A DNA stretch of 64,000 nucleotides from a virus. The stretch's first letter is position 1. Every line of letters begins with the position of its first letter. The DNA is taken from the UHGV virus genome UHGV-0141439; one strand, given 5' to 3'. The notes beneath the pieces were generated by a model that did not search any database, was not told the origin of the DNA, and saw only the letters and a program-made list of their open reading frames with translations. This document shows, piece after piece, positions 1,851 through 46,435 of this stretch. The translations under genes were made by a program, and so were the position numbers.

Positions 1851-2504
1851 CTATCCCTTCTTGAAATCAAAGTTGCTTGCGATGGCCTGGAAGGTGCCTC
1901 CAGCCTTGAAATCAATATTTTCGTCGGCTGTCACAGTAATGTTTTTGCCATTAACGCTGATGTTATCGGCTGATTTGACGTTAACACTCCCTCCCGCATT
2001 CACTACTACATCAGCCGGACCAATGATGTATATCTGCCCTGATTCATTCATTCCAATCCTTGAGCCTGCTGCCGTATTCGCTATTTCATATCCACCGCCA
2101 GCCGTTCGCACTTCGAGCACATTGTTGCGGTGAATCACGAAATCTTTTGTCGCCGAAAATTGCGGGCGGGGAGGCGCTCCGTCTACTTCTGGTGGCGTCC
2201 AGCCGCTACCATTGCCTGACGCCTCCGGCGCGACGTTTGGTACTCCTCCAGGCGCATCCTGAGCTGCGCCAACTATCATTGGGCGTCTGGTATCAATTCG
2301 ACCATTAACATCCAGATAAGGAAACTCTACCCATACCAGGTCGCCTTTTACTGTAGGTACAAACGCGTTACCTATGGGTAACAGGTATTCTGCCCAGGGT
2401 AGATCGTCATCAGGAACGCCATTCCAGTCTGGTAAAACACGGACCTGAGCACGCATAAGCCCTGCCGGGTGCACAGTTCCAACAATTTGCGCTCTACGCT
2501 TCAT
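1851..2504 (-). CDS. Baseplate spike/hub-like protein (gpV/gp5-like) candidate
   Basis: 217 aa; N-terminal region resembles an OB-fold and the C-terminus has short G-rich beta-helix-like repeats (GGSVNVKSADNISVNGKNITVTADENIDFKAGG). Assignment by pattern recognition only. Confidence 0.4.
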   Translation of the reverse strand: MKRRAQIVGTVHPAGLMRAQVRVLPDWNGVPDDDLPWAEYLLPIGNAFVPTVKGDLVWVEFPYLDVNGRIDTRRPMIVGAAQDAPGGVPNVAPEASGNGSGWTPPEVDGAPPRPQFSATKDFVIHRNNVLEVRTAGGGYEIANTAAGSRIGMNESGQIYIIGPADVVVNAGGSVNVKSADNISVNGKNITVTADENIDFKAGGTFQAIASNFDFKKG

Positions 2505-3481
2505 TTGTTCGGCACTCCTAATATCATTCGTGTTGTGTAGCCTACGCGGTCTTCAAAGTGCGCAACATTTTTTACTATCAGCTTGCGGGGCATTGATTCA
2601 TCAATGCGGTTTTCCTGGTCATAGCGGTATACGATAATCTCTATTACCATTCCCGGTTTTATATCCGGATTGCCTGCGACTTCTATATCCATTTTGGGGA
2701 CGAGAGACAGCTGCATATTGCGAAGAGTTTCCATATCAGAGTCGGATATATAACGCACTGGGAGTGAGCTATCGCCATATTCGACGTAGCCATCGGTCAT
2801 GGAATACCCAACAAAACGATATTGATTCTTTGCTGTTGTCGCATGTTCCTGTTGGAGTAGGCGCATTTTGGACAAAGTGTATTCTGCTTTAGGGTTATTC
2901 CCCTCGTAGGTAAATGATGGCGTTTGCTTCATCAGATCAGCCAGGGTGTAAAAGTTAAATTCCCCACGGCATACCCAACATAATGCACCTTTGTCTCGCG
3001 CTATCTGCGAGAGCATTTTTGACGGTTTGTCACCGGCATTCAGATGATATGTAACTGCGCGTTTTAGCACGCTGCTGGTAATTTTAAGCTTGCCGGAATA
3101 TGCCTTGAATATAGCGTCTGGTGTTTTGTTGGTATGTAAATTTGTGCGCGGGGAGGGGATCTTAAACCTGCGCACGTCTTCACTGACAGCAATAACGGTA
3201 ACAACATCACCAGCCAGCATTGCAGACGTAACAAAGAAGTCTGTTTTAAAAGTGCCTGCATTACCGTTTGGATCGCCCATTTCAGCCACCAGCGATGCAC
3301 CGTATTTGGCTTTCCAGTCATCAATTACAGTGCCGGTAGCGTCATGAATTTCCAGTTTTAGCAAAGGGGCTTTGAGGCTGGTTTTTTCTACATATACTGC
3401 GGTAAAAATCCAGTCTCGTGGCACTTTGTTATCGTTAATGAGCACTGACTGTAGAAAATATTGTTGTAACTCCTGGGCCAC
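2501..3481 (-). CDS. Hypothetical protein, translationally coupled in a four-gene operon
   Basis: 326-aa ORF; start overlaps the upstream stop, stop overlaps the downstream start. Confidence 0.4.
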   Translation of the reverse strand: MAQELQQYFLQSVLINDNKVPRDWIFTAVYVEKTSLKAPLLKLEIHDATGTVIDDWKAKYGASLVAEMGDPNGNAGTFKTDFFVTSAMLAGDVVTVIAVSEDVRRFKIPSPRTNLHTNKTPDAIFKAYSGKLKITSSVLKRAVTYHLNAGDKPSKMLSQIARDKGALCWVCRGEFNFYTLADLMKQTPSFTYEGNNPKAEYTLSKMRLLQQEHATTAKNQYRFVGYSMTDGYVEYGDSSLPVRYISDSDMETLRNMQLSLVPKMDIEVAGNPDIKPGMVIEIIVYRYDQENRIDESMPRKLIVKNVAHFEDRVGYTTRMILGVPNK

Positions 3482-3484
3482 TTA

Positions 3485-4252
3485 TCACCCCATAGATATC
3501 GAGGTTTCGGTAATAATACGTTTTGCGTCCAACTCCCATGCTGTGATCACGTCTGCAATCACACTTATCGGCGCTTGTGTGGCATAAATACGCTCTTCTC
3601 CAATTGGTGCCGAAACATCCGTAAATCCGACTTCTTTGGCATCCTGTATCGAGCAAATCAGCGGGACCGGGACACGAACAAGGTGAGTGGTTGCTTCAAA
3701 TTGTGTACCTGTCATCAGGCGAAGCCGTGCGCCCAGCGAATTACACATCAGACTCATGGTCGCTTTATCAGTTGCCATTAACGTAACGTCATACGTCAGA
3801 ATGGCCTGGGTGTATTCCAGTTCTGCTAAAGGCATTCCGGTATCCGGTTCGCAAAAACTGGCTACTTTTTTGCGGTCAATCTGCTGATCATCGTTGATAT
3901 AATTGATATCCATAGTGCGTGAGATATTGACCAGGGGGAGAGCATCCCGGTTAATGTTCTGGTTTTCAGGTTTTCTCCCTTGCCCGGCATTTGCGCGACG
4001 AACTGCTTTAAGAAACTCGATCGCATTGTCGAAACGGGCCACATAGACACGCTCTGCTGGTGGACGATTCAGGAATGACGCAAAGCGTTTTTCTTCCGGC
4101 GCGGGGGCCACCAGTAAGATATCAGAAAAGATATTGCTGATTAGCGTAGCAAACGCGTTATCCACGTTTTCAAAGCCCGTGGTCTGGAATTTTCCTGTGC
4201 GTGAGGTTTGCCATTCACCTGTTCGCGCCAGGAGGGTTTTATTTGAAGTCAT
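3485..4252 (-). CDS. Hypothetical protein (operon member)
   Basis: 255-aa ORF; 4-nt overlap with the upstream gene. Confidence 0.4.
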   Translation of the reverse strand: MTSNKTLLARTGEWQTSRTGKFQTTGFENVDNAFATLISNIFSDILLVAPAPEEKRFASFLNRPPAERVYVARFDNAIEFLKAVRRANAGQGRKPENQNINRDALPLVNISRTMDINYINDDQQIDRKKVASFCEPDTGMPLAELEYTQAILTYDVTLMATDKATMSLMCNSLGARLRLMTGTQFEATTHLVRVPVPLICSIQDAKEVGFTDVSAPIGEERIYATQAPISVIADVITAWELDAKRIITETSISMG

Positions 4253-5040
4253 TCGATCACTCCGTTTTGAGTCGTATCAAAATTCCTGGCAGGTATGCAG
4301 TAGTAAAGCGAACCAACATGCTGTGTGCCGTAGCTAAAAATACGGTGCACGTACCACCAGCGGCGGGCTACGCCGTTTACCATCTCTTCATTCCATTCAA
4401 GAATTGATCCGACGGGGACGTTATTTGCTGCAATACGCAGAATCAGAACATCATCGGTTAAGCCATCCTGCTCACCGTCTGCGTCAATCGCATGGAAAGA
4501 GTCACGCCCGTCCGGGTTATCCAGCACATAAACGATTTCAGGTTCCTGGTAAGTCAGTTCGCGCTGGTTGTTATCCAGTTCAGTGAATGACTCTTCTCCT
4601 GTTTCGTCGCTGACTACCCCATATGTGCCAACATCTGGTCGATATAAGAGAGCCTGAAACGCGTCTGGGCTGGATTCAATAATCAGCATCCAGTCTGCGC
4701 GGATTTGGTCGTTAAAGGCTTTATGCCCGTTATAGCGTGCTTTTAGCTGTGGAGTTGGTTCTCTGCCAGCCAGGGAAGGTGGAAGTATGGCTATATCTGA
4801 TTCGGCAGCATCCGGAGTAAGGCCAGCGTTGCTATCAGCAAAATTATCATGGCTATCAGCTTTGGCGGCGGGTTGCTCTTCCAGAATGCTGAATGAATCC
4901 GAACCGGTATTGCCATGTTCCGGCGCACCTCCTGCATTCGCTTCAATCGGCGCTGGCGTTTCTCTCTGCGTGCTGTCATGTTCTGACTCCTTACTTGCCA
5001 GGTTTGCATCGTCAGCAAACCATTCGTCAAAACGGCCCAT
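4249..5040 (-). CDS. Hypothetical acidic protein (operon first gene)
   Basis: Track ORF 4249-5142; likely start is the ATG at 5040 (MGRFDEW...), 6 nt after a GAGG. Confidence 0.4.
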   Translation of the reverse strand: MGRFDEWFADDANLASKESEHDSTQRETPAPIEANAGGAPEHGNTGSDSFSILEEQPAAKADSHDNFADSNAGLTPDAAESDIAILPPSLAGREPTPQLKARYNGHKAFNDQIRADWMLIIESSPDAFQALLYRPDVGTYGVVSDETGEESFTELDNNQRELTYQEPEIVYVLDNPDGRDSFHAIDADGEQDGLTDDVLILRIAANNVPVGSILEWNEEMVNGVARRWWYVHRIFSYGTQHVGSLYYCIPARNFDTTQNGVIE

Positions 5041-5202
5041 AAGCATCCTCAAAGGTCGATCTGTCAGGTATCGAAAGGAAGATTTTCGGGAGATTGTGAT
5101 TTTGGATGAAGGAGGGGGAATCCATAAAATGCACTTGCGCACAGTGCAACAGTGCGCTATAGTTATGGCATTCGGTAATCATCACGGAGGATCAAATGAC
5201 TA

Positions 5203-5505
5203 ATGACCAAAAAAATTAACATAAAGGATTTCAGGGATGCGTGGCTTGATGATTTTTTTGAATTTTCAACACCACATAGAAAGATACCTCCTGATATTCA
5301 TATGACATTGTCACGGAAGTTGGACATTATCAATGCCGCAACTACCTGTAAGGATTTAAGATCACCACCAGGTAATCGGTATGAGGAACTGTCAGGGAAG
5401 CTAAATGGCTATTCATCAGTAAGGGTGAATAAGCAATATAGGTTAATTTTTAAGTGGGTTAACGGAAAGGCCGAGGACTTGTATCTCGACCCTCACAAAT
5501 ACTAA
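5203..5505 (+). CDS. higB: HigB-family toxin (plasmid maintenance system killer, RelE/ParE fold)
   Basis: 100 aa; C-terminal pattern SVRVNKQYRLIFKWVNGKAEDLYLDPHKY is typical of HigB-like toxins; antitoxin follows. Confidence 0.75.
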   Translation: MTKKINIKDFRDAWLDDFFEFSTPHRKIPPDIHMTLSRKLDIINAATTCKDLRSPPGNRYEELSGKLNGYSSVRVNKQYRLIFKWVNGKAEDLYLDPHKY

Positions 5506-5575
5506 AACAGATACCCGGTTACGGACCGGGTTCTGACCAGAGTCCACTTAATACGCACGCTAGTAAGGGCAAAAA

Positions 5576-5914
5576 ATGAAACAGGCAACCAGAAAACCGA
5601 CGACCGTAGGTGATATCCTTCTGTACGAATACCTGGAGCCGTTAGAGCTGAAGATCAACGAGTTAGCAGAAATACTTCATGTTCATCGTAACACCGTAAG
5701 TGCTCTTGTTAATAATAATCGTAAGCTAACGATGGATATGGCATATCGCCTGGCAAAAGCATTCGATACTTCTGTAGATTTTTGGATTAATCTTCAGACC
5801 GCAGTAGATCTGTGGGAAGTCGAAAATGATATGCGCGTTCAGGAAGAGTTAAGTCGTATCAATACTGCTGAAAAATTTATTTCTCAGCGGAACCTGAATA
5901 AAAAAGCAGCCTGA
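5576..5914 (+). CDS. higA: HigA-family antitoxin, XRE-type HTH
   Basis: 112 aa; HTH segment LAEILHVHRNTVSALVNNNRKLTMDMAYRLAKAF...FWINLQ; immediately downstream of higB. Confidence 0.75.
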   Translation: MKQATRKPTTVGDILLYEYLEPLELKINELAEILHVHRNTVSALVNNNRKLTMDMAYRLAKAFDTSVDFWINLQTAVDLWEVENDMRVQEELSRINTAEKFISQRNLNKKAA

Positions 5915-5936
5915 TATAGTAAAACACATACAAAAA

Positions 5937-5964
5937 GCCCACTTAGCAAGTGGGCTTTCCTTTG
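5937..5964 (+). terminator. Rho-independent terminator after higA
   Basis: GCCCACTT-AGC-AAGTGGGC hairpin followed by TTTCCTTTG. Confidence 0.6.
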
Positions 5965-5970
5965 TAATTA

Positions 5971-6171
5971 ATGAACATTAAACCTATCCGTACAGAACAA
6001 GATTATGAGGCCGCACTGCGTGCGGTCGAACCGATGTTCGATAACGAACCGGAAATGAATACTCCGGAAGGTGATTTCTTTGAGGTTATGAGTCTTCTCA
6101 TTGAGGAGTACGAGAAGAAACATTACCCAATTCAGCCACCATCACCTGTTGAATCTTTTAACTATCCATAA
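5971..6171 (+). pseudogene. Orphan N-terminal fragment of a YgjM/HigA-type antitoxin (no HTH domain)
   Basis: 66 aa (IRTEQDYEAALRAVEPMF...LIEEYEKKHYPI) resembles the N-terminal half of HigA-type antitoxins; the reading frame stops before any HTH and AT-rich DNA follows. Confidence 0.35.
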
Positions 6172-6192
6172 TAAAAGTAATCAGGATAAGCT

Positions 6193-6921
6193 ATGATGTC
6201 AGAAAAAGTTACAGATAATCCGTCTATAAATGAAACAGAACTAAAATCATTTTCTGAAATAATAAAAGATAAAATATTTAACAAGGTTTTTGCATATGTT
6301 GTCATTTCTTTTCTAATTTTTAACTGGAAGGATATTTTAATTATATTAAAGTCAAAGGACGACATCCTATATACATTATCTATTGTTTTTGTTGGTGGTA
6401 ATGTCCCGTTCTTTGATAATTGGATTGTATCCCCGTGGGTTTATCACGTTGTAATCCCATTTGTTTATGGAGTATTTGCATCTGTGTTAGCTCCTATTCT
6501 CACACTGAAGATATCTAAGCTAACAAGTAAATTATACACTGAAATAAGATATTTAGATGAAGCTGCTGATTATGATAAAAGAATAGAATTGCAAAGAAAG
6601 AAAACAAAGTTAAATCAAGCAACCAATGACGCTAAATATTCAAAACAAATCTTAGATGAAAATGAAAATAAACTTAATGACCTAGCTAAGAAACAGCGAG
6701 AAATTTGCGGCGCGATAAAACTATTGCATACTGATGTTGGCAGTATTATTGAGCTATATAAAAATAAGGGGGTTAGCATTGAATCTCCGCAAGATTTATG
6801 TGATTTTATAGTCGCTATAAAAAGCACATCATTCTATAATGATGACAAGCATTTTAATAAATTGGTGTCTGATATTTCCAGTTTGTTTGATAATACTGGA
6901 ATTGATCTTTCAAAAAAATGA
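6193..6921 (+). CDS. AT-rich membrane protein with C-terminal coiled coil (possible abortive-infection/exclusion protein)
   Basis: 242 aa; three hydrophobic helices then a K/E-rich coiled coil; local GC far below the flanking DNA. Confidence 0.5.
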   Translation: MMSEKVTDNPSINETELKSFSEIIKDKIFNKVFAYVVISFLIFNWKDILIILKSKDDILYTLSIVFVGGNVPFFDNWIVSPWVYHVVIPFVYGVFASVLAPILTLKISKLTSKLYTEIRYLDEAADYDKRIELQRKKTKLNQATNDAKYSKQILDENENKLNDLAKKQREICGAIKLLHTDVGSIIELYKNKGVSIESPQDLCDFIVAIKSTSFYNDDKHFNKLVSDISSLFDNTGIDLSKK

Positions 6922-6928
6922 AAGCCCA

Positions 6929-6966
6929 GCATAAACTACTAGGCTATGTGTGGTTTATGCTTTTTT
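6929..6966. terminator. Bidirectional hairpin terminator between convergent genes
   Basis: GCATAAAC-N16-GTTTATGC followed by TTTTTT on the + strand and preceded by an A-run. Confidence 0.5.
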
Positions 6967-8148
6967 CACGTACTCTATAAACATCTTCTCAGCCTGTTCT
7001 TGTGGCGTTCCAGCCATGACAAGCGCATCAATGAACGCCTGCTTCTTCAGTGCGAACTGATCGGCAAGGCGTTGCTGAAGTTCCTTATTTTTCTGTTTCT
7101 CACGTTGCAAGGCCGCTTCTTTTGCAGCCGCCCGTTTTTTCTGTGCGTCTGACAACTTTCTGGCCCTGGTCAATTGGTCACGTAGCTTGTCGATCTTGCC
7201 GTTGTCCTTTGCCAGTTTTGTACTTAAAGCTGCCTGGCGTTTCTGATAGAGCCTCCATTCGCGTTTGGCGGCTTCAACGTTCGTTTTACTGCTACGATTG
7301 CGATTAAACTCCTTCTCGTCTTCTTTTGAGAAGTGTTTAGTTGTACGGCGGCGATCGTCACCAAATGCAATTTGCGTTGCAGCCTTTTGTAGCGCACGAG
7401 CAATACTCATTTGCCAACTGGCGGACTGTAACCGCGTCATTGAGTGGATCACGTGTTTACAGGCGACGCCTTGCAGCTTCGGGTTGCGAACTTTTGGATA
7501 GGCGTATTCTTTTGGCGGTGCCAGGGCAAAGTTACCCGCAGTGGCGATGTAACGATACCAGTATTGATGACGACCACAGTCACAATCGAAAGACACTCGC
7601 CCGGCGCACAGTGATTTAGTGATTTTGAGAGCTGATTTATCGTCTTCTGCGATGTCATCAACCATCTGATCCCATTCTTCAAAGCGTATCCGGACGATAT
7701 GGTGCTGGTGGACGGATATATCCGATGCTTCTACGCGGATATTAATCACATTGTGGCGAAGAGATACGGGGGTAGCTCTTTTGATACCAGATCCGTCATC
7801 CACGGCGTTATTTGCACGCTTAATATCGATTGCCTGGCTGGATGCCACCAGCTGGGCGTATGTGATGCCAGCCGTCTTGCTGTCATATTTTTCGCGCGTT
7901 TTACTCCGTAGCTTTTCGAAACCTTTCAGGTCGTCTCGCGTGAAGAACGTGCCGCCTTTTTTCTTCCCTAACTTGAGAATATCTTCGGCGGATTTGTTCC
8001 TCAGTCTACCTGGCGTCAGCGTCCGGTGAGCTTGTCGGCGCTTACGGGTTTGTTCTTTCCTGATAATCTCGAATAAACGCGTGAAGTCCTTAGAGGACAG
8101 GCCGTCAGTGATATAGCGCCCGTCCTGGTTTTTCAGGAAATCAGGCAT
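6955..8148 (-). CDS. SWIM-type zinc-finger protein with basic coiled-coil C-terminus
   Basis: 397 aa; CDCGRHQY...CKHVIH fits the CxCxnCxH SWIM pattern. Confidence 0.45.
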   Translation of the reverse strand: MPDFLKNQDGRYITDGLSSKDFTRLFEIIRKEQTRKRRQAHRTLTPGRLRNKSAEDILKLGKKKGGTFFTRDDLKGFEKLRSKTREKYDSKTAGITYAQLVASSQAIDIKRANNAVDDGSGIKRATPVSLRHNVINIRVEASDISVHQHHIVRIRFEEWDQMVDDIAEDDKSALKITKSLCAGRVSFDCDCGRHQYWYRYIATAGNFALAPPKEYAYPKVRNPKLQGVACKHVIHSMTRLQSASWQMSIARALQKAATQIAFGDDRRRTTKHFSKEDEKEFNRNRSSKTNVEAAKREWRLYQKRQAALSTKLAKDNGKIDKLRDQLTRARKLSDAQKKRAAAKEAALQREKQKNKELQQRLADQFALKKQAFIDALVMAGTPQEQAEKMFIEYVKKA

Positions 8149-8470
8149 TTTCTATCTCCGGTTCCGCGCTTGCGTAATCACGGATCTTGTTCCTCAGCCA
8201 TGCCACATCAGGAAGAGTTAACGTGGTCCCTGCGGGCATTTCTTCCATTTCTGACTCATGGCCCACCAGCACCCGGAATACCCAGCGCAAATCTGCATTG
8301 CCATACGCCCTGTAGGCTGCAAGGTCTGAACGATATACTTCATCAATCTTTATCGTGTACTGGAAATTATCAGAGTGATACTCCGATACCCGCTTAATCA
8401 TTTCCTGGTGAAACAGCGCACGAAAAATATCGTCTTCAATGTACCTATCGTCGAGTCTGCTATAGCCCAT
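8141..8470 (-). CDS. Hypothetical protein, translationally coupled upstream of the SWIM protein
   Basis: 109-aa ORF overlapping the downstream start by 8 nt. Confidence 0.4.
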   Translation of the reverse strand: MGYSRLDDRYIEDDIFRALFHQEMIKRVSEYHSDNFQYTIKIDEVYRSDLAAYRAYGNADLRWVFRVLVGHESEMEEMPAGTTLTLPDVAWLRNKIRDYASAEPEIENA

Positions 8471-8663
8471 AACAAAGCCTCTCAGTCATAACCTGGGGGA
8501 AACTGTATGCAGGGTGTGAAATGCGAGAAACAGACAGGCCACCAGTTCAGGGGGATGTGGTTCATAAATCCCCTCACTGGTGACAAGTGACTTTCATTAA
8601 TCTTTATGCGGGGGCCAGCTTCATTTGCTGGCATTAGATTAAAAATTAAACGGAGTGAATAAC

Positions 8664-8798
8664 ATGGATGTTATCTTCGAATTATTAATGCTAATTGATC
8701 TGTTTATGAACGCTTCATTGACCACTCAAATACTGGCGTCAATATTTTTGTTACTCTTCTACCTGGTATTGAGGGAGTTAACAAAGCTACTAATGTGA
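8664..8798 (+). CDS. Small hydrophobic peptide (44 aa), membrane-toxin-like
   Basis: ATG at 8664 after GGAG; hand translation MDVIFELLMLIDLFMNASLTTQILASIFLLLFYLVLRELTKLLM. Not in the ORF track (under 60 aa). Confidence 0.25.
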   Translation: MDVIFELLMLIDLFMNASLTTQILASIFLLLFYLVLRELTKLLM

Positions 8799-9452
8799 TC
8801 AAAGTATCACGGTATCTTCATCAACTTCTTTCCCAGTCAGTGTCTTTGACTGGGAGGTGCCTGCTTTAACTTTTTCATGCCCAATAATGGACAGGAACGA
8901 AGCGAGTATGCCTGTTTTTTGCTCTTTCTCGACTGTACCGGTCATCTGCTCTACGTAATCCGCACTGGCTACATTGTGGTATACGGTCGCGTAGCAACAC
9001 AGGATCATCAAAATATGCTCCGGCCTGATATCCTGCCAGTTCACCCGGTAGACTTCTTCTCCGTTACCGTTGTATTCGGTGTCAACGATGGAGTCAGGGA
9101 TTTCGAAAGCACCTTTGTTATTTTGCGGCAGGGATAATAGCTTCTGGAGTTTTAACTCTCTGTATCTTTCCATCCCGACGATGATTGCTGCTCTGCCATC
9201 GGCATGACGGGTCTTGAGAGTCACCTGGCTTGCTCCGGTGCCAGCGGAGATCGTTGGCGTAATTTCGTCTACCAGTACCTTAAATTTGCTTTTCCGCAGG
9301 GCTGCTATAGCTGGAGGAATTTTTTGCTTTTGCTCCAATGCTGACGCGGGAAGGGGTTTTACTTCGTTAATAATGAGAGCACCGTCTTTCAGTATTGCAG
9401 TGAGCATTTGAGGCTTGCTGGTGGTCAGGCTGAATATTGCGATCTTTTCCAT
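8799..9452 (-). CDS. Hypothetical protein
   Basis: Track ORF 8799-9494; best start is the ATG at 9452 (MEKIAIFSL...) after a GGAGGAAGG RBS. Confidence 0.5.
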   Translation of the reverse strand: MEKIAIFSLTTSKPQMLTAILKDGALIINEVKPLPASALEQKQKIPPAIAALRKSKFKVLVDEITPTISAGTGASQVTLKTRHADGRAAIIVGMERYRELKLQKLLSLPQNNKGAFEIPDSIVDTEYNGNGEEVYRVNWQDIRPEHILMILCCYATVYHNVASADYVEQMTGTVEKEQKTGILASFLSIIGHEKVKAGTSQSKTLTGKEVDEDTVIL

Positions 9453-9479
9453 TGTCCTTCCTCCACGGATGACGGATAC

Positions 9480-9503
9480 AAAAAAAGGCCGCACATGGCG
9501 GCC
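9480..9503 (-). terminator. Hairpin plus U7 on the minus strand, 28 nt upstream of the 9452 start codon (leader terminator/attenuator candidate)
   Basis: GGCCGC-ACATG-GCGGCC hairpin flanked by AAAAAAA on the + strand. Confidence 0.45.
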
Positions 9504-9720
9504 TGCTTTGGCGTTATGACTCCCTACCGCGCTTCGGCTGAAAGTTAATCGTCAAAAGAACCTTCAACGGGAGCCGTTAGCGCGATGGATTATGTGCAGT
9601 TTGTGATTTCCAAAATAGTGTCAACCACTTTTGGTGGATTTTATTTTTTAACCGAAATTTGGCCTAAATCATGTTTATGTAGTTAATTGTTTTTATAACA
9701 TAAAACTTCATTTTGTTTGC

Positions 9721-39595: not shown

Positions 39596-42500
39596 TTAGG
39601 CCGCATCGGCGATTATTTTACGCAGTTCATCTACCGAGTAACGCGTAGATACCATCCACGCCGGACGGTCAAAGTTCACATCAGCAACCGGGTTTGCTTC
39701 AAAATTCCAGAAACGCCCGCCAATCTTCTTAATCGCGTCTTTGGCGTTCCGTATTGTCGAGGAACCTGGCTGGTCGGCAATGAGATAAACCGCGCCAACG
39801 TCTTCGCTGACGCTCCACCAGCGCCCGCGAACACGCGCCTTAGCGCGAATCGGCTTATCATTAACCACAATGATATAGTCATCATTCGCCGCTTCATCAG
39901 CTCTGGCTTCAGCCACTGCCGCCTGCTCTTCTCTTTTGCTTTCAGCCTGCTCAAGCCTTTCCGCGATCTCTGATTCAGTGGCCCCGCCGTTTTTCAGCGA
40001 TACATAGTCCTGCCACGTTGCCGATTTGAGCGCATCCGGCAACTCATTCACATAGTCGCCGTCTTTCAACTCACGGGCGCGACGGGTAGCCATTTCTACC
40101 AGGCGATTAACAGAAACAGCATCAGCAAAATCGTCCTTACTAATGTGTTTTTCATCAAATGCATTGATGACAGCCCCCACCTTAATCCACTGTGCTGCTG
40201 GCGAATCCAGAGGATTATCGGCCTGAACAATGGCTAATTTCGCTCCATCGACACCATTATTAGCCAGCTGCTCCAATGCCGACCAGCCATCGGCATCGCT
40301 GAGTGATTTATATTGCTCAAACAATGCATCGCGCCAGGCCACCAGCGCAGCTCGTGTTTTCTCAATTTTCGCCGTAATTTTCGCGGCCTTCACCTGATTA
40401 AACATCCGTTCAATGTCATCAGTGTTGCTAAAGGCTTTCATCCTGCCCTGGAATAAACGGTATGCCACCACGGTCTTCCAGAAAGATTCCAGCCCTTCTC
40501 CGGACGGTTTACGGAACAGGCTAAGAATATCTTCAGAAGTAACTTTATTAAGTGAGCGACCGGACAAACCACGCCCTGCCATCCAGTTTTCAAACTCCTG
40601 GGAAACATCATCCATCGTGGCCTGTGACCCCCATGCCTGCATTCCCTGGATGTAATCATATCCATACAATGCCTGGAGGAATCCCTCTCCGTCCACGATA
40701 TTCAGCGGGTTATCACTGGCTTGTATTTTTGCCACTTCACGCTTCAGCGCCTCATCGTTGCCATCAGGGTAAATCCACCGCTCAGGCGCTATATCCGATG
40801 CTCGCCCGATTTTTTGACCTATTACGCCATCATAAGCCGATGACAGTGCAATCTGACCATCATCGGTGCGATAAGCCCAGTATTTAATAGCTGAACCACC
40901 GCCCCATACTCTACCAGGCTTCCCGGCAGTGACATTCATTACCCCATTGCGAATAGCATCATAGAACTGATCGCGCGTAAGTGTTGTTGATAGCTGGTGG
41001 CATTGAACACCACGTGCAGCTGTTTCACGCGATTCTGCAACTCCCTCTTCAAAGGTTACCGATTCAATTATCAGGTTAAAGGGCAAAAATAATGCCGTCC
41101 CCGGAGAACGAGAGTAACGACTAGCCACATCCAGCCAGGATATGCGGCACGTACACCCGCCCCTTTCCGCATCAATGGCGGTAACACGAACAATTGCTGT
41201 CGTATTGTGATTCTCATCGATGATCGCGCGATAATGGCTGCCCTTGTGCAACAAGATATTTTTCTCAGTGCGTACATACTCCTGTGGGTTCTGCAATACA
41301 TCGGCATCAAGCTCCAGAACCCCGGCTTTAATCGCACGTTCCAGATCACCACGAGAACGTTTCATAACGGTGTCAGCGTCTTTAGCTCTGGTGATCGCAA
41401 AGCGTAGCTCCCGCACACGTTTTCTGTAGTCTCGCAACTGTTCCAGAACATATTTCTGCCCGTTCCTGTTCGTCCCCGCTTTAATCAGGTCGTCAACATT
41501 GCGCTGGTAATGCTCTACCTGCTCCATCGCGCTTTTCAGTTCAGTCTCCATCATGCCGATATCTTTCCCGGCAGCATTCGCCGCTTTCAGGTAGTTATCG
41601 AGAGCATTATTGGCTTCGCGTAGGGCTTTCAGTTTCAGACGTTCTTCACGCTCTTGCGCCTGACGACTCATGATTGCACGGCGTTCTTCCGGATTTGCCG
41701 CCAGCATAATGGCGCGTTCATCTGCGTCATCCGCATCACCATTGGCGATCTCTGACATGTCGGAGGTCATCACCATATTGATCCAGTCCTTCTTACGTTT
41801 CAGCGTATCCAGACGGAAGTCATCAAATGTGCCTTTGCCACAATAGTAGTGAACATTGACCTTTTCTTGTGGTGAGCCTACCCGAGCGCCGCGTCCATTA
41901 CGTTGGTCGATACTGGCAGGAGTCCAGGGTAGTGTCAGATGGTGGATATCGGTTGTCCCGATGTGCAAGTTAATACCTACTTCAGCCTTCTTGTTACAGA
42001 TTATGATGCGCGTGCGACCTTCGTTATAGTCGGCGGCAATACCTTCCATGCCCTCAAGGCCAGCATCATTTTTAGCTGAGAGATAATCCTCATATTGGGC
42101 AAGTTTGCTGTAGTAGGTTTCCCATGCACCTTCTTTGTATTCACCGTTTTTATTTGGCGTAGGTTCAGTCGGCTTATTCACCTTCTTCAGCTTGACGCCG
42201 CCAGCCTGGCTAACTGTCGTCGCATTGATAATGCCTATCTCCTGCTCCGGCATTTGCAGTGCACTGGCAATAATACGGCGCAGCTTCTGGTGCTGGGCTT
42301 TTTCATCAATGAAGACGATTTGTTTACCGTTCTTCAGACCTTCACGAAGGTTTTCGATCAGCGCGGCATACTTCGGCGGGATGGGGTGTGATACCTGCTG
42401 CATATCAATACCGGCAGCCGCAATGGCCTTCAGTATTTCAGCTTCCAGTTCAATGCCAGCACGTATTTCAACATGCGACGGATGTTCGCTAAAGGTGGTC

Positions 42501-45500
42501 TTCACTACCTTGCTGGTACGCGTACTGACCAGCCCACCAGCGCCATCTTCTTCGGCATCGTCTACATCATCTGCCACTTTACCGCCAGCTACTTTTGGCA
42601 GGGCATCAGCAATAGCTTTTACCTTGTCTGCAAGCTCAACGGGGAACTGGAATGTAATCGCACTGGCATACAGATCAGGATCTATAGCAACCTTATCCAT
42701 GTCGCGGATGATGGAGAAGATGAAATCATCCGGTTTTTCGTTTGTGATATGCCCGTTTTCATCGACCGTCAGCGCATCTTTACTGCTTAACTCCTGTGCA
42801 CGCTTACGAAGTTCTTCGTAAATGGCCTCTTGCTCTCCTGTCATCGGGATCTGCAAGGTATTCTCGACAATATCAGGGATTTTTACCGTCGCCCCGACGT
42901 CAGCAGCAGTCTTCAGAGTAGTCCAGCGATGGAAAATACCACGCAGACCATCCAGGTTCTGGAAGCCCACCAGTCCCTGCTTCTCTTCCACCTCACCGGA
43001 AATTTTCTGAACCTGAACTGTGGCTGTTTTACCGAACACGCGAACGAAATCATCCGGCGTAACAATACCCATGCGCATCCACTCTTCCTGCGGAATGACA
43101 GTAGACAGCATGTTGAAAGCATCAATCGGGCTGTTCACCAGCGGTGTTGCCGTCAGCATAACCACACCACGCCCGTTGTTGCGTTTCATCATGTACGCAG
43201 CTTTTACAGCCATGTCGCGGGCCATTTTGGATACTGCCGGGTTAGGCAAATATGCCAGTTGCCCCGCTTCGCGCCCGGCGCTAAAGGAGTTGCGGTAGTT
43301 ATGCCCTTCGTCGGCAATTACGCTATCGAAGTTCATATCCTCAAAGTACGGGATATTCTGCTTCTTCGTTGTACCGGTATTTGCGGCCTGGTCCTTAATC
43401 TTGTTCTTCTTCTGCGCGTCACGGTGTTTGCCAGATGCCAGGTCAAGACGCCCCATTTCCACAGCATTAAAGACCGCTTGCTGTGAGTTTTCCTCAATGG
43501 TTTCTTCTCGTAGCGGGATAGACGCGAATTGCTCTTTTGTCATGATGACCGTTCGCCAATTTGACGACGGGATCATGTTCATGCGCTGAACGATAACGGC
43601 GCTGGCGGACTCTTTCACAACATTTCTGGTAAGAGCCTGCCCGTTACTGTCGAGGCGTGGTTCGCCATTTTCATCAAGCACCGGCGCGGTCAGAATATTT
43701 CCGCTGTCATCACGAACTTCATCCAAACCGATAAACATCATATTGGCGAAGGCATCAGCACTGTAGAAACTCTGTGCCTCGTGATACCAGTTCTGATAAA
43801 CCGCCTTCGGAACAACAATACACGTGCGTTTAGTGCGACCTGTTTCGAAGTTATACGCCTCAAGCGCAAGCGCGGTCGTGGTTTTACCCAGCCCGGTGCC
43901 AAATCCCATGATGCCGCGCCCATCTTCTGATAAGCGACGAACTTCTTCATTCTGATAAGTCAGAGGAATGCGCTTCCCACTAATCCCCTCCAGGCCAAGC
44001 GGTGCGTCAGAATGCGTAAACGGGATGAAGCCATTAAATGCGTCGTTATAGTCGCGGGCTATCTGATCAGCCTGCGGGTGAGTGCGTAACCAGTCGTTGA
44101 AGCTAATTTCCAGTTGAGCAATCTTATCCAGGTACTCGTTAGCGTTCTGCCCACGCGGTTTAATGCCGTTCAGGTAGTTTTCTAACTGGTTCAGGAAGCC
44201 GTCTTTATTGTTGGCCTTCTTGAACTCATTCCCGTTTTTGCCGTTTACGGTTCGTAGTTGATAGCCAGTAAATACCCCGTCCTTACCTTCGTAATCGTCC
44301 GGAGATACCAGAATGCCGTCCTCAACCTTAAGGTCGGGTTCTGTATACTTAAACTCGTCATAGCCTTGCTCTGCCAGGAACTCTTTTATCAAGCGGCGAT
44401 CCAGCCAGCGGGCGTTCAGATTAACGGTGACTTTATTTAGTGGCGTGAAAATGCGTTTCTCTTCGATTTTCGCCAACTGACGCTCAAAGTTCGCTTTCTG
44501 CTCACCTGTTGACGCATCACGCCAGCCCACCAGCAATGCTGTTTTGGTTGCAATATCGCCGCTGGTGGCGCGGTCCATAGGCAGCAGGCAGCCATACCCA
44601 TCAATAGCGATATCATCAAATTTCGCCAGGTATTCCAGAGCAGCATCGTCGTCTCCTGGCAGTTCGCCAGCAAACGCCTCACGAAAATAGTCCAGTGTGA
44701 TTGGATTAAGTGCCACGTCACTGAAAAGGTGGGTTACAACTTGTTCCGGGCGTGTAAAGTCAATACCGGCAGCACCATCCGTTACATCAAGTCGTCCAGC
44801 AAGGAGGTCAGAAGCAGAGCCGTCCTGTTTCACGTTGCCAGTGAAAGTCATCCAGTTTTTAGCGCCAGCTTCAGCAATCCCATTCAGCTTAATCGCGTGC
44901 GGCGGACCATACTTCGCAATTTCGGCTTCCGCCAGGCGCGCGGCATCAGCAAGTTCATCATCAACATTTTCCCCCAGATTACGCTTATCAAGCGCCTTGT
45001 TGATCAACTGCCCTATCAGTGCGCCGCGCATAACGCGTTCTCTGTCTTTTTCTCTCTGCTTGCCAGCAAAGCGAATCATTGCCGCTACTTCATCACTGAT
45101 AACCGACGGATAGTCGGACGCGATCGCCGATATCTGGTCCCATGACAACGCCAGAATGCCATTTGTTGACTGAAACGCGATCTGCAGATCACCAAACGTC
45201 GTAACACCATATCGATTTACATCAAGCGCGGAGGATTTGGTTGTCGCGTCCTTGACCCATTTCAGACCATCAAACTCATGCCAGATGCCGCCTACAAGGC
45301 GTTTATCGCCCACTTTCGCGCCCTGCCATGCCTGAGTAGTTACGCCAAGCAAATCCCAATTAATGCGGCTTTCAAAGCGGCGCGATAGAGCGGTTTTCAT
45401 CGACTCATTGGATACACGACCGTCCTTTTTCACCACCAGGGTATTGCGGAAGCTGGTACGCTCCATATCGCCGTAAACAAATCGCTTCCCTTCGGTTGTA

Positions 45501-46435
45501 AACCATTTCCCTTTGAGGAAGGTATCCCAAAGGACGTTTGCCGACTTGAGCGTTGCATCATCCGTGTCGGGGATCATCTCCAGGAAGGTTTCCGGGTGTT
45601 TACGCAATACCCATACGTCCACCACTGTATCTGTACCGGATTCGCTGAACGTACCAGAAGGCATACGATGTGCGCCCAAAAATTCCGCTTTACGGCTGAC
45701 TTTATCGCGCAATTTTTTGTATTTCGTACCATCGGTCATGCCATTCGGCACCACCAATACAATTAGTCCACCAGGCTTAACCTTGTCGATCGTGCGCAGC
45801 ACAAAATAATTGCCAACGTTCTTCTCGTTTGCATATGCCGGATCAAGCCCGGCGACACCGGAACGCCCTTCGCCAAACGGTACGTTACCAACAGCATGGT
45901 CATACATTGCGTCTTTCGCCGCCAGAGCTTCAAACGCCCCGATATTCACATCGTCTTCCGGGTGCAAAAGCTGGTTTATTCGACCGGAAATCGGAGACAG
46001 TTCGGCGCTGGTCATTATCATGCCCTGCCGTTTTGTCTCCTGGAAAATACCTGTGCCCGCTGATGGTTCCAGTACGTGCCCACCATCAATACCGTAGTCA
46101 GCAAACAGATCCCATATACCTTCAGCCATAAACTGTGGCGTGTAGTATTCGTATTGGCTGCCCTCACCATCTGTCAGGCCACCTTCACCGGTATACCCGG
46201 CAAGAATCTGACGTTGTTCGTCAGTTAATTTCGCCCCATCGAAGCCGGGCGGAAGGGAATTAAGAAGATTTACTGCGGCATTGTTTGCTGCCCGGCGTGT
46301 TTTCTGAATACTGACGCCATCGGCTTTCCTGACGCCAAAGGTCGCAACAGCACGTAATTTATGCAACCGACTAACAATTTCAATCAGTTCGCCTAAGCTG
46401 GAGGCTTCACTGATTGAATGAAGTAGTTTGTCCAA
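39596..46435 (-). CDS. darB: DarB-like giant methyltransferase-helicase (2279 aa)
   Basis: N-terminal N6-MTase motifs (VLEPSAGTGIF; NVPF) and C-terminal SF2 helicase motifs (GTGLGKT, DEGH, TATP, QRNGRGAR); size close to P1 DarB; TTG start after a GAGGGGG RBS. Confidence 0.7.
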   Translation of the reverse strand: MDKLLHSISEASSLGELIEIVSRLHKLRAVATFGVRKADGVSIQKTRRAANNAAVNLLNSLPPGFDGAKLTDEQRQILAGYTGEGGLTDGEGSQYEYYTPQFMAEGIWDLFADYGIDGGHVLEPSAGTGIFQETKRQGMIMTSAELSPISGRINQLLHPEDDVNIGAFEALAAKDAMYDHAVGNVPFGEGRSGVAGLDPAYANEKNVGNYFVLRTIDKVKPGGLIVLVVPNGMTDGTKYKKLRDKVSRKAEFLGAHRMPSGTFSESGTDTVVDVWVLRKHPETFLEMIPDTDDATLKSANVLWDTFLKGKWFTTEGKRFVYGDMERTSFRNTLVVKKDGRVSNESMKTALSRRFESRINWDLLGVTTQAWQGAKVGDKRLVGGIWHEFDGLKWVKDATTKSSALDVNRYGVTTFGDLQIAFQSTNGILALSWDQISAIASDYPSVISDEVAAMIRFAGKQREKDRERVMRGALIGQLINKALDKRNLGENVDDELADAARLAEAEIAKYGPPHAIKLNGIAEAGAKNWMTFTGNVKQDGSASDLLAGRLDVTDGAAGIDFTRPEQVVTHLFSDVALNPITLDYFREAFAGELPGDDDAALEYLAKFDDIAIDGYGCLLPMDRATSGDIATKTALLVGWRDASTGEQKANFERQLAKIEEKRIFTPLNKVTVNLNARWLDRRLIKEFLAEQGYDEFKYTEPDLKVEDGILVSPDDYEGKDGVFTGYQLRTVNGKNGNEFKKANNKDGFLNQLENYLNGIKPRGQNANEYLDKIAQLEISFNDWLRTHPQADQIARDYNDAFNGFIPFTHSDAPLGLEGISGKRIPLTYQNEEVRRLSEDGRGIMGFGTGLGKTTTALALEAYNFETGRTKRTCIVVPKAVYQNWYHEAQSFYSADAFANMMFIGLDEVRDDSGNILTAPVLDENGEPRLDSNGQALTRNVVKESASAVIVQRMNMIPSSNWRTVIMTKEQFASIPLREETIEENSQQAVFNAVEMGRLDLASGKHRDAQKKNKIKDQAANTGTTKKQNIPYFEDMNFDSVIADEGHNYRNSFSAGREAGQLAYLPNPAVSKMARDMAVKAAYMMKRNNGRGVVMLTATPLVNSPIDAFNMLSTVIPQEEWMRMGIVTPDDFVRVFGKTATVQVQKISGEVEEKQGLVGFQNLDGLRGIFHRWTTLKTAADVGATVKIPDIVENTLQIPMTGEQEAIYEELRKRAQELSSKDALTVDENGHITNEKPDDFIFSIIRDMDKVAIDPDLYASAITFQFPVELADKVKAIADALPKVAGGKVADDVDDAEEDGAGGLVSTRTSKVVKTTFSEHPSHVEIRAGIELEAEILKAIAAAGIDMQQVSHPIPPKYAALIENLREGLKNGKQIVFIDEKAQHQKLRRIIASALQMPEQEIGIINATTVSQAGGVKLKKVNKPTEPTPNKNGEYKEGAWETYYSKLAQYEDYLSAKNDAGLEGMEGIAADYNEGRTRIIICNKKAEVGINLHIGTTDIHHLTLPWTPASIDQRNGRGARVGSPQEKVNVHYYCGKGTFDDFRLDTLKRKKDWINMVMTSDMSEIANGDADDADERAIMLAANPEERRAIMSRQAQEREERLKLKALREANNALDNYLKAANAAGKDIGMMETELKSAMEQVEHYQRNVDDLIKAGTNRNGQKYVLEQLRDYRKRVRELRFAITRAKDADTVMKRSRGDLERAIKAGVLELDADVLQNPQEYVRTEKNILLHKGSHYRAIIDENHNTTAIVRVTAIDAERGGCTCRISWLDVASRYSRSPGTALFLPFNLIIESVTFEEGVAESRETAARGVQCHQLSTTLTRDQFYDAIRNGVMNVTAGKPGRVWGGGSAIKYWAYRTDDGQIALSSAYDGVIGQKIGRASDIAPERWIYPDGNDEALKREVAKIQASDNPLNIVDGEGFLQALYGYDYIQGMQAWGSQATMDDVSQEFENWMAGRGLSGRSLNKVTSEDILSLFRKPSGEGLESFWKTVVAYRLFQGRMKAFSNTDDIERMFNQVKAAKITAKIEKTRAALVAWRDALFEQYKSLSDADGWSALEQLANNGVDGAKLAIVQADNPLDSPAAQWIKVGAVINAFDEKHISKDDFADAVSVNRLVEMATRRARELKDGDYVNELPDALKSATWQDYVSLKNGGATESEIAERLEQAESKREEQAAVAEARADEAANDDYIIVVNDKPIRAKARVRGRWWSVSEDVGAVYLIADQPGSSTIRNAKDAIKKIGGRFWNFEANPVADVNFDRPAWMVSTRYSVDELRKIIADAA

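Follow-up and report, generated by a model that had tools for sequence, protein, structure and literature searches.

The two overlapping minus-strand genes described here lie in a virus genome, UHGV-0141439, of which a stretch of 64,000 nucleotides (the window) was analysed, and they almost certainly represent genes 26 and 25 of a D6-like plasmid-prophage belonging to the P1 group. The core of the gene 25 product (gp25) was found to carry an invariant CxC...CxH signature with the predicted fold of a SWIM-type finger. Our leading reading of its function, tentatively held, is that gp25 is a zinc-stabilised, basic factor of baseplate and tail assembly, low in copy number or transient, that works with the plug protein encoded by gene 26.

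Identification of the gene pair

In this region the window is about 93% identical in DNA sequence to Escherichia phage D6, a P1-like plasmid-prophage. The 397-aa ORF is the orthologue of D6 orf74, recorded as 'similar to P1 gene 25; tail protein', and the 109-aa ORF is that of D6 orf75, recorded as 'similar to P1 gene 26; baseplate (wedge subunit)'. At the amino acid level, window gp25 shares 98.5% identity with D6 orf74 and 56% with P1 gp25, and window gp26 is 100% identical to D6 orf75 (tblastn). Window gp25 matched phrog_1722 from residue 2 to residue 396 (E 9e-196), a full-length similarity to the P1 gp25 family (PHROG 1722/4315). Window gp26 matched phrog_1269 'baseplate wedge subunit' (E 2e-36), the solved P1 Gp26 chain (9ay5_S, 9vzk; E 1e-16, residues 4-99) and, weakly, the Pfam families Phage_gp53 and Phage_tail_X. 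Its likeness to the T4 gp53/LysM plug or glue proteins lies in these matches, and judged by sequence similarity the small acidic product of gene 26 is a LysM/T4-gp53-like baseplate 'plug'. The small upstream partner reported in an earlier note on this DNA thus turns out to be a gp26 homologue, a plug with solved P1 structures. In P1, gp26 is present in six copies, which anchor the wedge ring of the baseplate on the central hub (PMC12810830); its placement in the baseplate comes from HHpred and two cryo-EM studies (including PMC12810830).

Common to the window, D6 and P1 are the position of gene 26 upstream of gene 25, the mat gene upstream of both and the tail genes 7, 24, 6 and 5 nearby (Table 1). 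In P1, genes 26-25-7-24-6-5 are contiguous, whereas D6 and the window both have a plus-strand insertion between 25 and 7, a cassette encoding the toxin HigB, the antitoxin HigA, an HTH remnant and a protein of 242 aa. P1 genes 26 and 25 are 9 nt apart, whereas those of the window overlap by 8 nt, and the N terminus of window gp26 is 16 residues shorter than that of P1 gp26.

Table 1. Features of the gene 26/gene 25 locus and its surroundings, in positions of the window
Feature	Position	Strand	Details
Gene 26 orthologue, ORF	8141..8470	minus	109 aa, pI 4.77
Gene 25 orthologue, ORF	6955..8148	minus	397 aa, 45.6 kDa, pI 10.06
8-nt overlap	8141..8148	minus	ATGCCTGA; gene 25 start inside gene 26 end; sequence read directly
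GGAG, putative Shine-Dalgarno sequence for gene 25	8156..8159	minus	inside gene 26 3' end
Terminator-like hairpin and T-run	6923..6945	minus	AGCCTAGTAGTTTATGCTGGGCT TTCATTTTTT, 9 pairs; from a consensus scan only
gp25 N-terminal basic helical region, residues 1-115	7804..8148	minus	net charge +14; R37 and G94 invariant
gp25 core alpha/beta domain, residues 116-262	7363..7803	minus	three-stranded sheet, then SWIM module
SWIM signature C189-D-C191...C230-K-H232	7453..7584	minus	conserved 38-residue insert
gp25 long basic C-terminal helix, residues 291-378	7015..7278	minus	net charge +13; AF2
mat (maturation control) homologue	8799..9494	minus	phrog_1837, E 1e-93; upstream of gene 26
Rest of ancestral operon: 7 stopper, 24 tail terminator, 6 hub, 5 spike	1851..5142	minus	D6 annotation

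Layout and coupling of genes 26 and 25

The ATG of gene 25 is preceded, 8 nt upstream, by GGAG, and the upstream sequence ends ...CCGGAGATAGAAAATG. Together, the octamer ATGCCTGA shared by the two genes and the GGAG within gene 26 point to translational coupling of 26 and 25. A putative terminator hairpin lies directly 3' of the gene 25 stop, and the plus-strand cassette comes next. Because of the cassette inserted on the 3' side and the terminator-like hairpin, we regard 26-25 as a real two-gene unit in the window; the earlier note had described a coupled two-gene operon with the same boundaries, and the overlap, the GGAG and the separability of the unit bear this out. According to the P1 record, the late promoter LP26 precedes 26-25-7-24-6-5. 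A search of the window for an LP26-like late promoter gave matches at chance level only, and a sigma-70 scan 5' of gene 26 gave nothing better than shuffled sequences.

In P1, the EOP was 0.11 upon CRISPRi knock-down of gene 25 and 0.12 upon that of gene 26, and the knock-downs of both genes were non-polar on 7, 24, 6 and 5 (PMC10695390). The authors of that study suspect ineffective roadblocks behind the mild EOP of 25 and 26 (PMC10695390); the similarity of the two values also fits with two products needed in small amounts. Considering the non-polar knock-downs in P1 together with the separate two-gene unit in the window, genes 7 to 5 are evidently expressible alone.

Conservation of the operon setting

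The D6 counterpart of the window mat homologue is orf78 ('similar to P1 gene mat'), and the window homologue of gene 7 belongs to phrog_1906. According to the whole-virion structure of 2026, gp7 forms the connector stopper, gp24 the tail terminator, gp6 the hub and gp5 the spike (PMC12810830). A gp26-like ORF was found directly 5' of the gp25-like gene in 164 of the 165 loci that we fetched, which represent two clades only, the enterobacterial P1/D6-like and the Acinetobacter ABMM1-like. The metagenomic locus L166, at about 27% identity, has the order mat-26-25-7-24-6-5 as in P1, with the families phrog_1837, phrog_1269, the SWIM protein, phrog_1906/21442, phrog_1767, phrog_1390 and a Phage_base_V spike. 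At two further distant loci (L169 and L170), a 111-aa phrog_1269 gene is followed 3-4 nt on by the SWIM gene and then by a 160-170-aa phrog_4597 gene. Pairwise comparison of gp7 with phrog_4597, the 160-180-aa protein encoded downstream in the Acinetobacter-type clade, detected no similarity. The setting of the pair is a conserved tail/baseplate/connector operon, not a regulatory or anti-defence one. Among the well-studied plug relatives (T4, P2, Mu), we know of none with a SWIM protein encoded beside the plug gene.

The proximity of terminase and capsid genes to the pair in Acinetobacter phage ABMM1 and Xanthomonas phage Rb1 had led us to consider a head-module protein, either a scaffold or a MuF-like minor head protein. 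We abandoned this idea: the ABMM1 neighbour annotated as 'tail-collar fiber' is truly fibre-like and not a portal, the gene order in ABMM1 and Rb1 is scrambled as in P1, and a distant relative keeps the P1 tail-operon order.

A divergent SWIM-type module in gp25

Residues C189, C191, C230, K231 and H232 are invariant in all 23 close relatives aligned (23/23). Across 63 diverse relatives with identities as low as 22%, these five residues are likewise invariant, along with E214, P218, N222, G227, R37 and G94. In view of this invariance, CxC-x38-CxH is no chance pattern, and the CxCxnCxH motif noticed earlier can be written as C189-x-C191-x38-C230-K-H232. The 38-residue spacer is itself strongly conserved (YWYRYxATxG...ExxFPKIRNPxLxG) and is longer than in typical SWIM fingers.

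An AlphaFold2 (AF2) model of gp25, built on a 23-sequence alignment (pLDDT 82.7, pTM 0.71), places CxC where strand 185-189 ends and CxH where helix 231-239 begins. This placement is shared with SWIM fingers (ZSWIM8, SNF2-associated and small SWIM-type phage proteins), as are the CxC...CxH pattern and the CKH[VI] ending. The best PDB fold match of the model was ZSWIM8. Employing Foldseek against predicted viral structures, we obtained six matches at E<=1e-3, all of them small phage proteins, and those bearing a name were designated 'SWIM-type domain-containing protein'. In the structure-prediction check that the earlier note had proposed, the Cys/His spacing thus folds as a SWIM-type finger, according to both AF2 and Foldseek.

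The Pfam SWIM model (PF04434) gave no match to window gp25, neither at its gathering score nor even at E<=1. It appeared below threshold in 5 of the 63 relatives scanned (best E 0.0024) and was the sole Pfam family to recur among them. A profile of the 85-residue SWIM core, searched against a 5.8-billion-protein set, retrieved nothing but fragments of the gp25 family, canonical SWIM proteins being absent. In the PDB, sequence searches with full-length gp25 and with the core-domain profile found nothing relevant. Based on the model and the conserved signature, we conclude that the gp25 core is a SWIM-type module of divergent sequence, whose conserved insert is unusually long and in which zinc would be held by Cys189, Cys191, Cys230 and His232. 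Unlike other SWIM proteins, gp25 is without an ATPase, transposase or kinase partner domain, and its context is virion assembly. SWIM domains in general have reportedly been proposed to bind DNA or proteins.

Architecture and charge of the gp25 family

Window gp25 has a net charge of about +35 and four cysteines in the whole protein. In the AF2 model, the SWIM module comes after a three-stranded sheet and before a single helix of 88 residues. In its best heptad register, 15 of the 26 a/d positions of this C-terminal helix are hydrophobic, so that residues 291-378 may possibly form a coiled coil; the sequence of the helix is poorly conserved, but the helix itself is present family-wide. The earlier description of a stand-alone SWIM protein with a basic helical tail and a coupled small partner holds.

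A gp25 profile search over 1.84 billion representatives (E<=1e-3) yielded 687 clusters at 50% identity, nearly all of them 330-450 aa long. The family is uniformly basic, with pI values from 9.3 to 10.45 (about 10.5) and net charges from +14 to +48, and the gp26-like partners are acidic to neutral (pI 4.8-6.7). At such pI values (9.3-10.5), nucleic-acid binding by gp25 would be physically plausible.

gp25 in P1 virions

The P1 record labels gp25 'tail stability', and genes 7, 24 and 25 all bear this label. Amber mutants of gene 25 are on record, and their phenotype has come down through database annotation and later summaries (including PMC10695390). In the near-complete model of the P1 virion, gp25 is absent, with 0 mentions (PMC12810830), and the proteins modelled in a preprint on the P1 baseplate do not include it. 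In CsCl-purified P1 virions analysed by LC-MS/MS, gp25 was weak (2 peptides, 8.4% coverage), and the signal of gp7 was comparable (2 peptides, 11.1% coverage) (Gonzales et al. 2022). HHpred on gp25 gave nothing above 50% probability in the same study, which left undecided whether the protein is structural or an assembly cofactor. The virion structure now shows gp7 to be structural, with six copies (PMC12810830).

Possible roles of gp25

Coupling to the plug gene, complementary charge, absence from the virion models and the tail-stability annotation are the grounds on which we favour an assembly factor, and we infer from them that gp25 interacts with gp26 and that its role is transient. Through coupling, gp25 would be made in fixed proportion to the plug and would act, in few copies or transiently, while the baseplate and tail are built. 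Zinc on Cys189, Cys191, Cys230 and His232 would produce a rigid module bearing the conserved insert; the SWIM module would offer a surface for protein-protein contacts, and the basic surfaces of gp25 would bind acidic parts of the tail, for example the plug or the interface of wedge and hub. Afterwards gp25 would depart or remain as a few disordered copies. Upon loss of gp25, tails would form with a mis-locked baseplate, and the sheath would fire or fall apart, which would appear as the 'tail stability' phenotype.

T4 gp51 and gp26 are assembly factors that are needed for the tail or baseplate and are absent, or nearly so, from the particle. Their likeness to gp25 is by function only; no sequence or fold relationship between these T4 proteins and gp25 was found. 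Gonzales et al. suggested a non-structural or assembly-type role for gp7, gp16 and gp25; later work established a structural role for gp7 and gp16 (PMC12810830), and we offer the T4-type analogy for gp25 as a hypothesis only. A purely transient role of gp25 is not established, because its MS signal is about equal to that of the 6-copy gp7. With its extreme basicity and its zinc finger, gp25 would be no less suited to binding nucleic acids than to binding proteins.

The main rival to an assembly factor, which we consider possible but doubtful, is that gp25 is a genuine low-copy virion protein at a site where cryo-EM averaging fails, either in the tail lumen beside the tape-measure protein Sit or at the DNA end in the head-tail junction. 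From there it would be ejected into the cell together with the DNA; through its SWIM module and basic helices it would bind DNA or the acidic lumen of the tube. The strong basicity conserved across the family, the long helix 291-378 of the AF2 model and the DNA or protein binding that has reportedly been proposed for SWIM domains would all suit such a protein, although DNA binding is here a prediction from charge and the SWIM module. The gp25 signal in purified virions, similar to that of the six-copy stopper gp7, also argues for it, but so weak a signal may be carry-over, as the authors say of the prohead protease. The tape-measure protein too is unresolved in the P1 maps (PMC12810830); against this, no gp25 density was assigned in two independent P1 structural studies, and the annotated defect is one of tail stability, not of infection by normal-looking particles. 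A more specific version, in which gp25 is an injected zinc-finger 'pilot' that sits in the tail, beside the tape measure or the leading DNA end, and binds the incoming DNA, seems unlikely to us.

We also regard as improbable that gp25 is a chaperone for a tail part other than the plug, be it the tape measure or the terminator/stopper step, with which the tail is finished and becomes attached to the head. Genes 7 and 24 directly follow 25 in P1 and in L166 and share its 'tail stability' label, and the long helix of the gp25 model could pair with a helical tape measure. However, the D6-like window and the Acinetobacter-type clade keep 25 with 26 and have 24, 6 and 5 elsewhere, phrog_4597 downstream of 25 in the latter clade is without detectable similarity to gp7, and in P1 the proposed tape-measure chaperone is PmgB, encoded beside sit (Gonzales et al. 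2022).

The role that the earlier note had envisaged, a nucleic-acid-binding regulator or anti-defence protein, here one merely located among structural genes, is very improbable: a strongly basic protein with a zinc finger, a Xanthomonas phage Rb1 homologue labelled 'transcriptional regulator MvaT', and the packing of anti-restriction proteins by P1-type phages (a DarB-like ORF is present in the window) speak for it, but 26/25 belong to a conserved tail operon in P1, the position of gene 25 between the plug gene and the stopper/terminator/hub/spike genes is strict down to about 27% identity, its coupling to a structural protein gene is tight, the annotation with amber mutants on record is tail stability, PADLOC gave noise only (E 0.013 and 0.017) with no defence-profile match and Pfam no DNA-binding match, and P1 late transcription depends on Lpa, which is essential in CRISPRi (PMC10695390). 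Models of MvaT or other DNA-binding proteins neither matched window gp25 nor occurred among the 25 families listed for its 63 relatives, a set that leaves out the protein of Rb1 itself.

Significance

As a discovery the locus is ordinary, since both genes carry annotations already and gene 25 is a classical one, known through its amber mutants. The literature that we searched nowhere mentions a SWIM domain for gp25; given this and the earlier HHpred failure, the SWIM assignment and the family-wide features constitute a modest gain in annotation. Misleading labels, such as 'MvaT regulator' on the homologue of Xanthomonas phage Rb1, are corrected. gp25 is one of the last P1 morphogenetic proteins without a molecular role, and the SWIM module, the strict coupling to the plug gene and the uniform basicity provide concrete handles for experiments. 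If gp25 did prove to be an injected pilot protein, a 'tail stability' gene would become one for an ejected DNA-binding virion protein, and its product would be the first SWIM finger to serve virion structure or genome delivery.

A plus-strand cassette splits the tail operon

In P1 the operon that includes the baseplate plug gene (gene 26), the gene for the SWIM-type 'tail stability' protein gp25 (gene 25) and genes 7, 24, 6 and 5 is contiguous, whereas in the window it is split between genes 25 and 7 by a plus-strand cassette.

Features of the cassette and other parts of the window
Feature	Coordinates	Strand	Remarks
Plus-strand cassette	5203-6921	+	between gene 25 and gene 7
HigB-like toxin	5203-5505	+	Pfam E 4e-35
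HTH antitoxin	5576-5914	+	cassette member
Bidirectional terminator-like hairpin	5932-5960		inside cassette
66-aa remnant	5971-6171	+	cassette member
242-aa protein, function unknown	6193-6921	+	phrog_8191
329-nt spacer, mat homologue to gene 26	8471-8798
2279-aa ORF	39596-46435	-	N6-methylase, SNF2-related and helicase C domains

Relative to the closely related phage D6, 109 nt (6153-6261) stand in place of 309 nt, and this replacement cuts D6 orf72 (HTH/HigA-like, 119 aa) to 66 aa. On the left of this segment the DNA matches D6 at 99.4% identity (5101-6152), and on the right identity falls to 92.8% (6262-9700); the step suggests a recombination junction at the replaced segment.

The spacer upstream of gene 26 contains an inverted repeat, TCACTTGTCACCAGTGA, and small plus-strand ORFs that correspond to D6 orf76 and orf77; it yielded no convincing candidate for a promoter of the 26-25 pair. 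Elsewhere, the 2279-aa ORF codes for the anti-restriction head protein of the DarB type that P1-like phages carry. An SNF2 ATPase is therefore present in the element, yet it is unlinked to the SWIM protein.

Neighbors of the SWIM gene in other phages

In the Acinetobacter-type clade and some metagenomic clades, represented by Acinetobacter phage ABMM1 (L005) and loci L169 and L170, a phrog_4597 protein of 160-180 aa is encoded next after the SWIM gene, where a recognizable gp7 stopper would otherwise stand. Pairwise BLASTP showed no similarity between the phrog_4597 protein and gp7.

The gp25 homologue of Xanthomonas phage Rb1 (PQ569993; locus L004, 5800-6879) is itself reported, in the paper on it, to be the region most similar to ABMM1. 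It is annotated as 'transcriptional regulator MvaT', an assignment that no profile search we ran backed, and the label looks like a mis-annotation. Upstream, tblastn detected no gp26-like ORF in L004, and the gap 5147-5800 carries no annotation.

Expression of genes 7, 24, 6 and 5

CRISPRi roadblocks in genes 25 and 26 of P1 had no polar effect on genes 7, 24, 6 and 5 (PMC10695390); the corresponding stretch of the window is 4249-5142. Independently of the CRISPRi result, the D6-type layout, in which these four genes (stopper, tail terminator, hub and spike) are detached from 26-25, implies that they have a putative promoter of their own.
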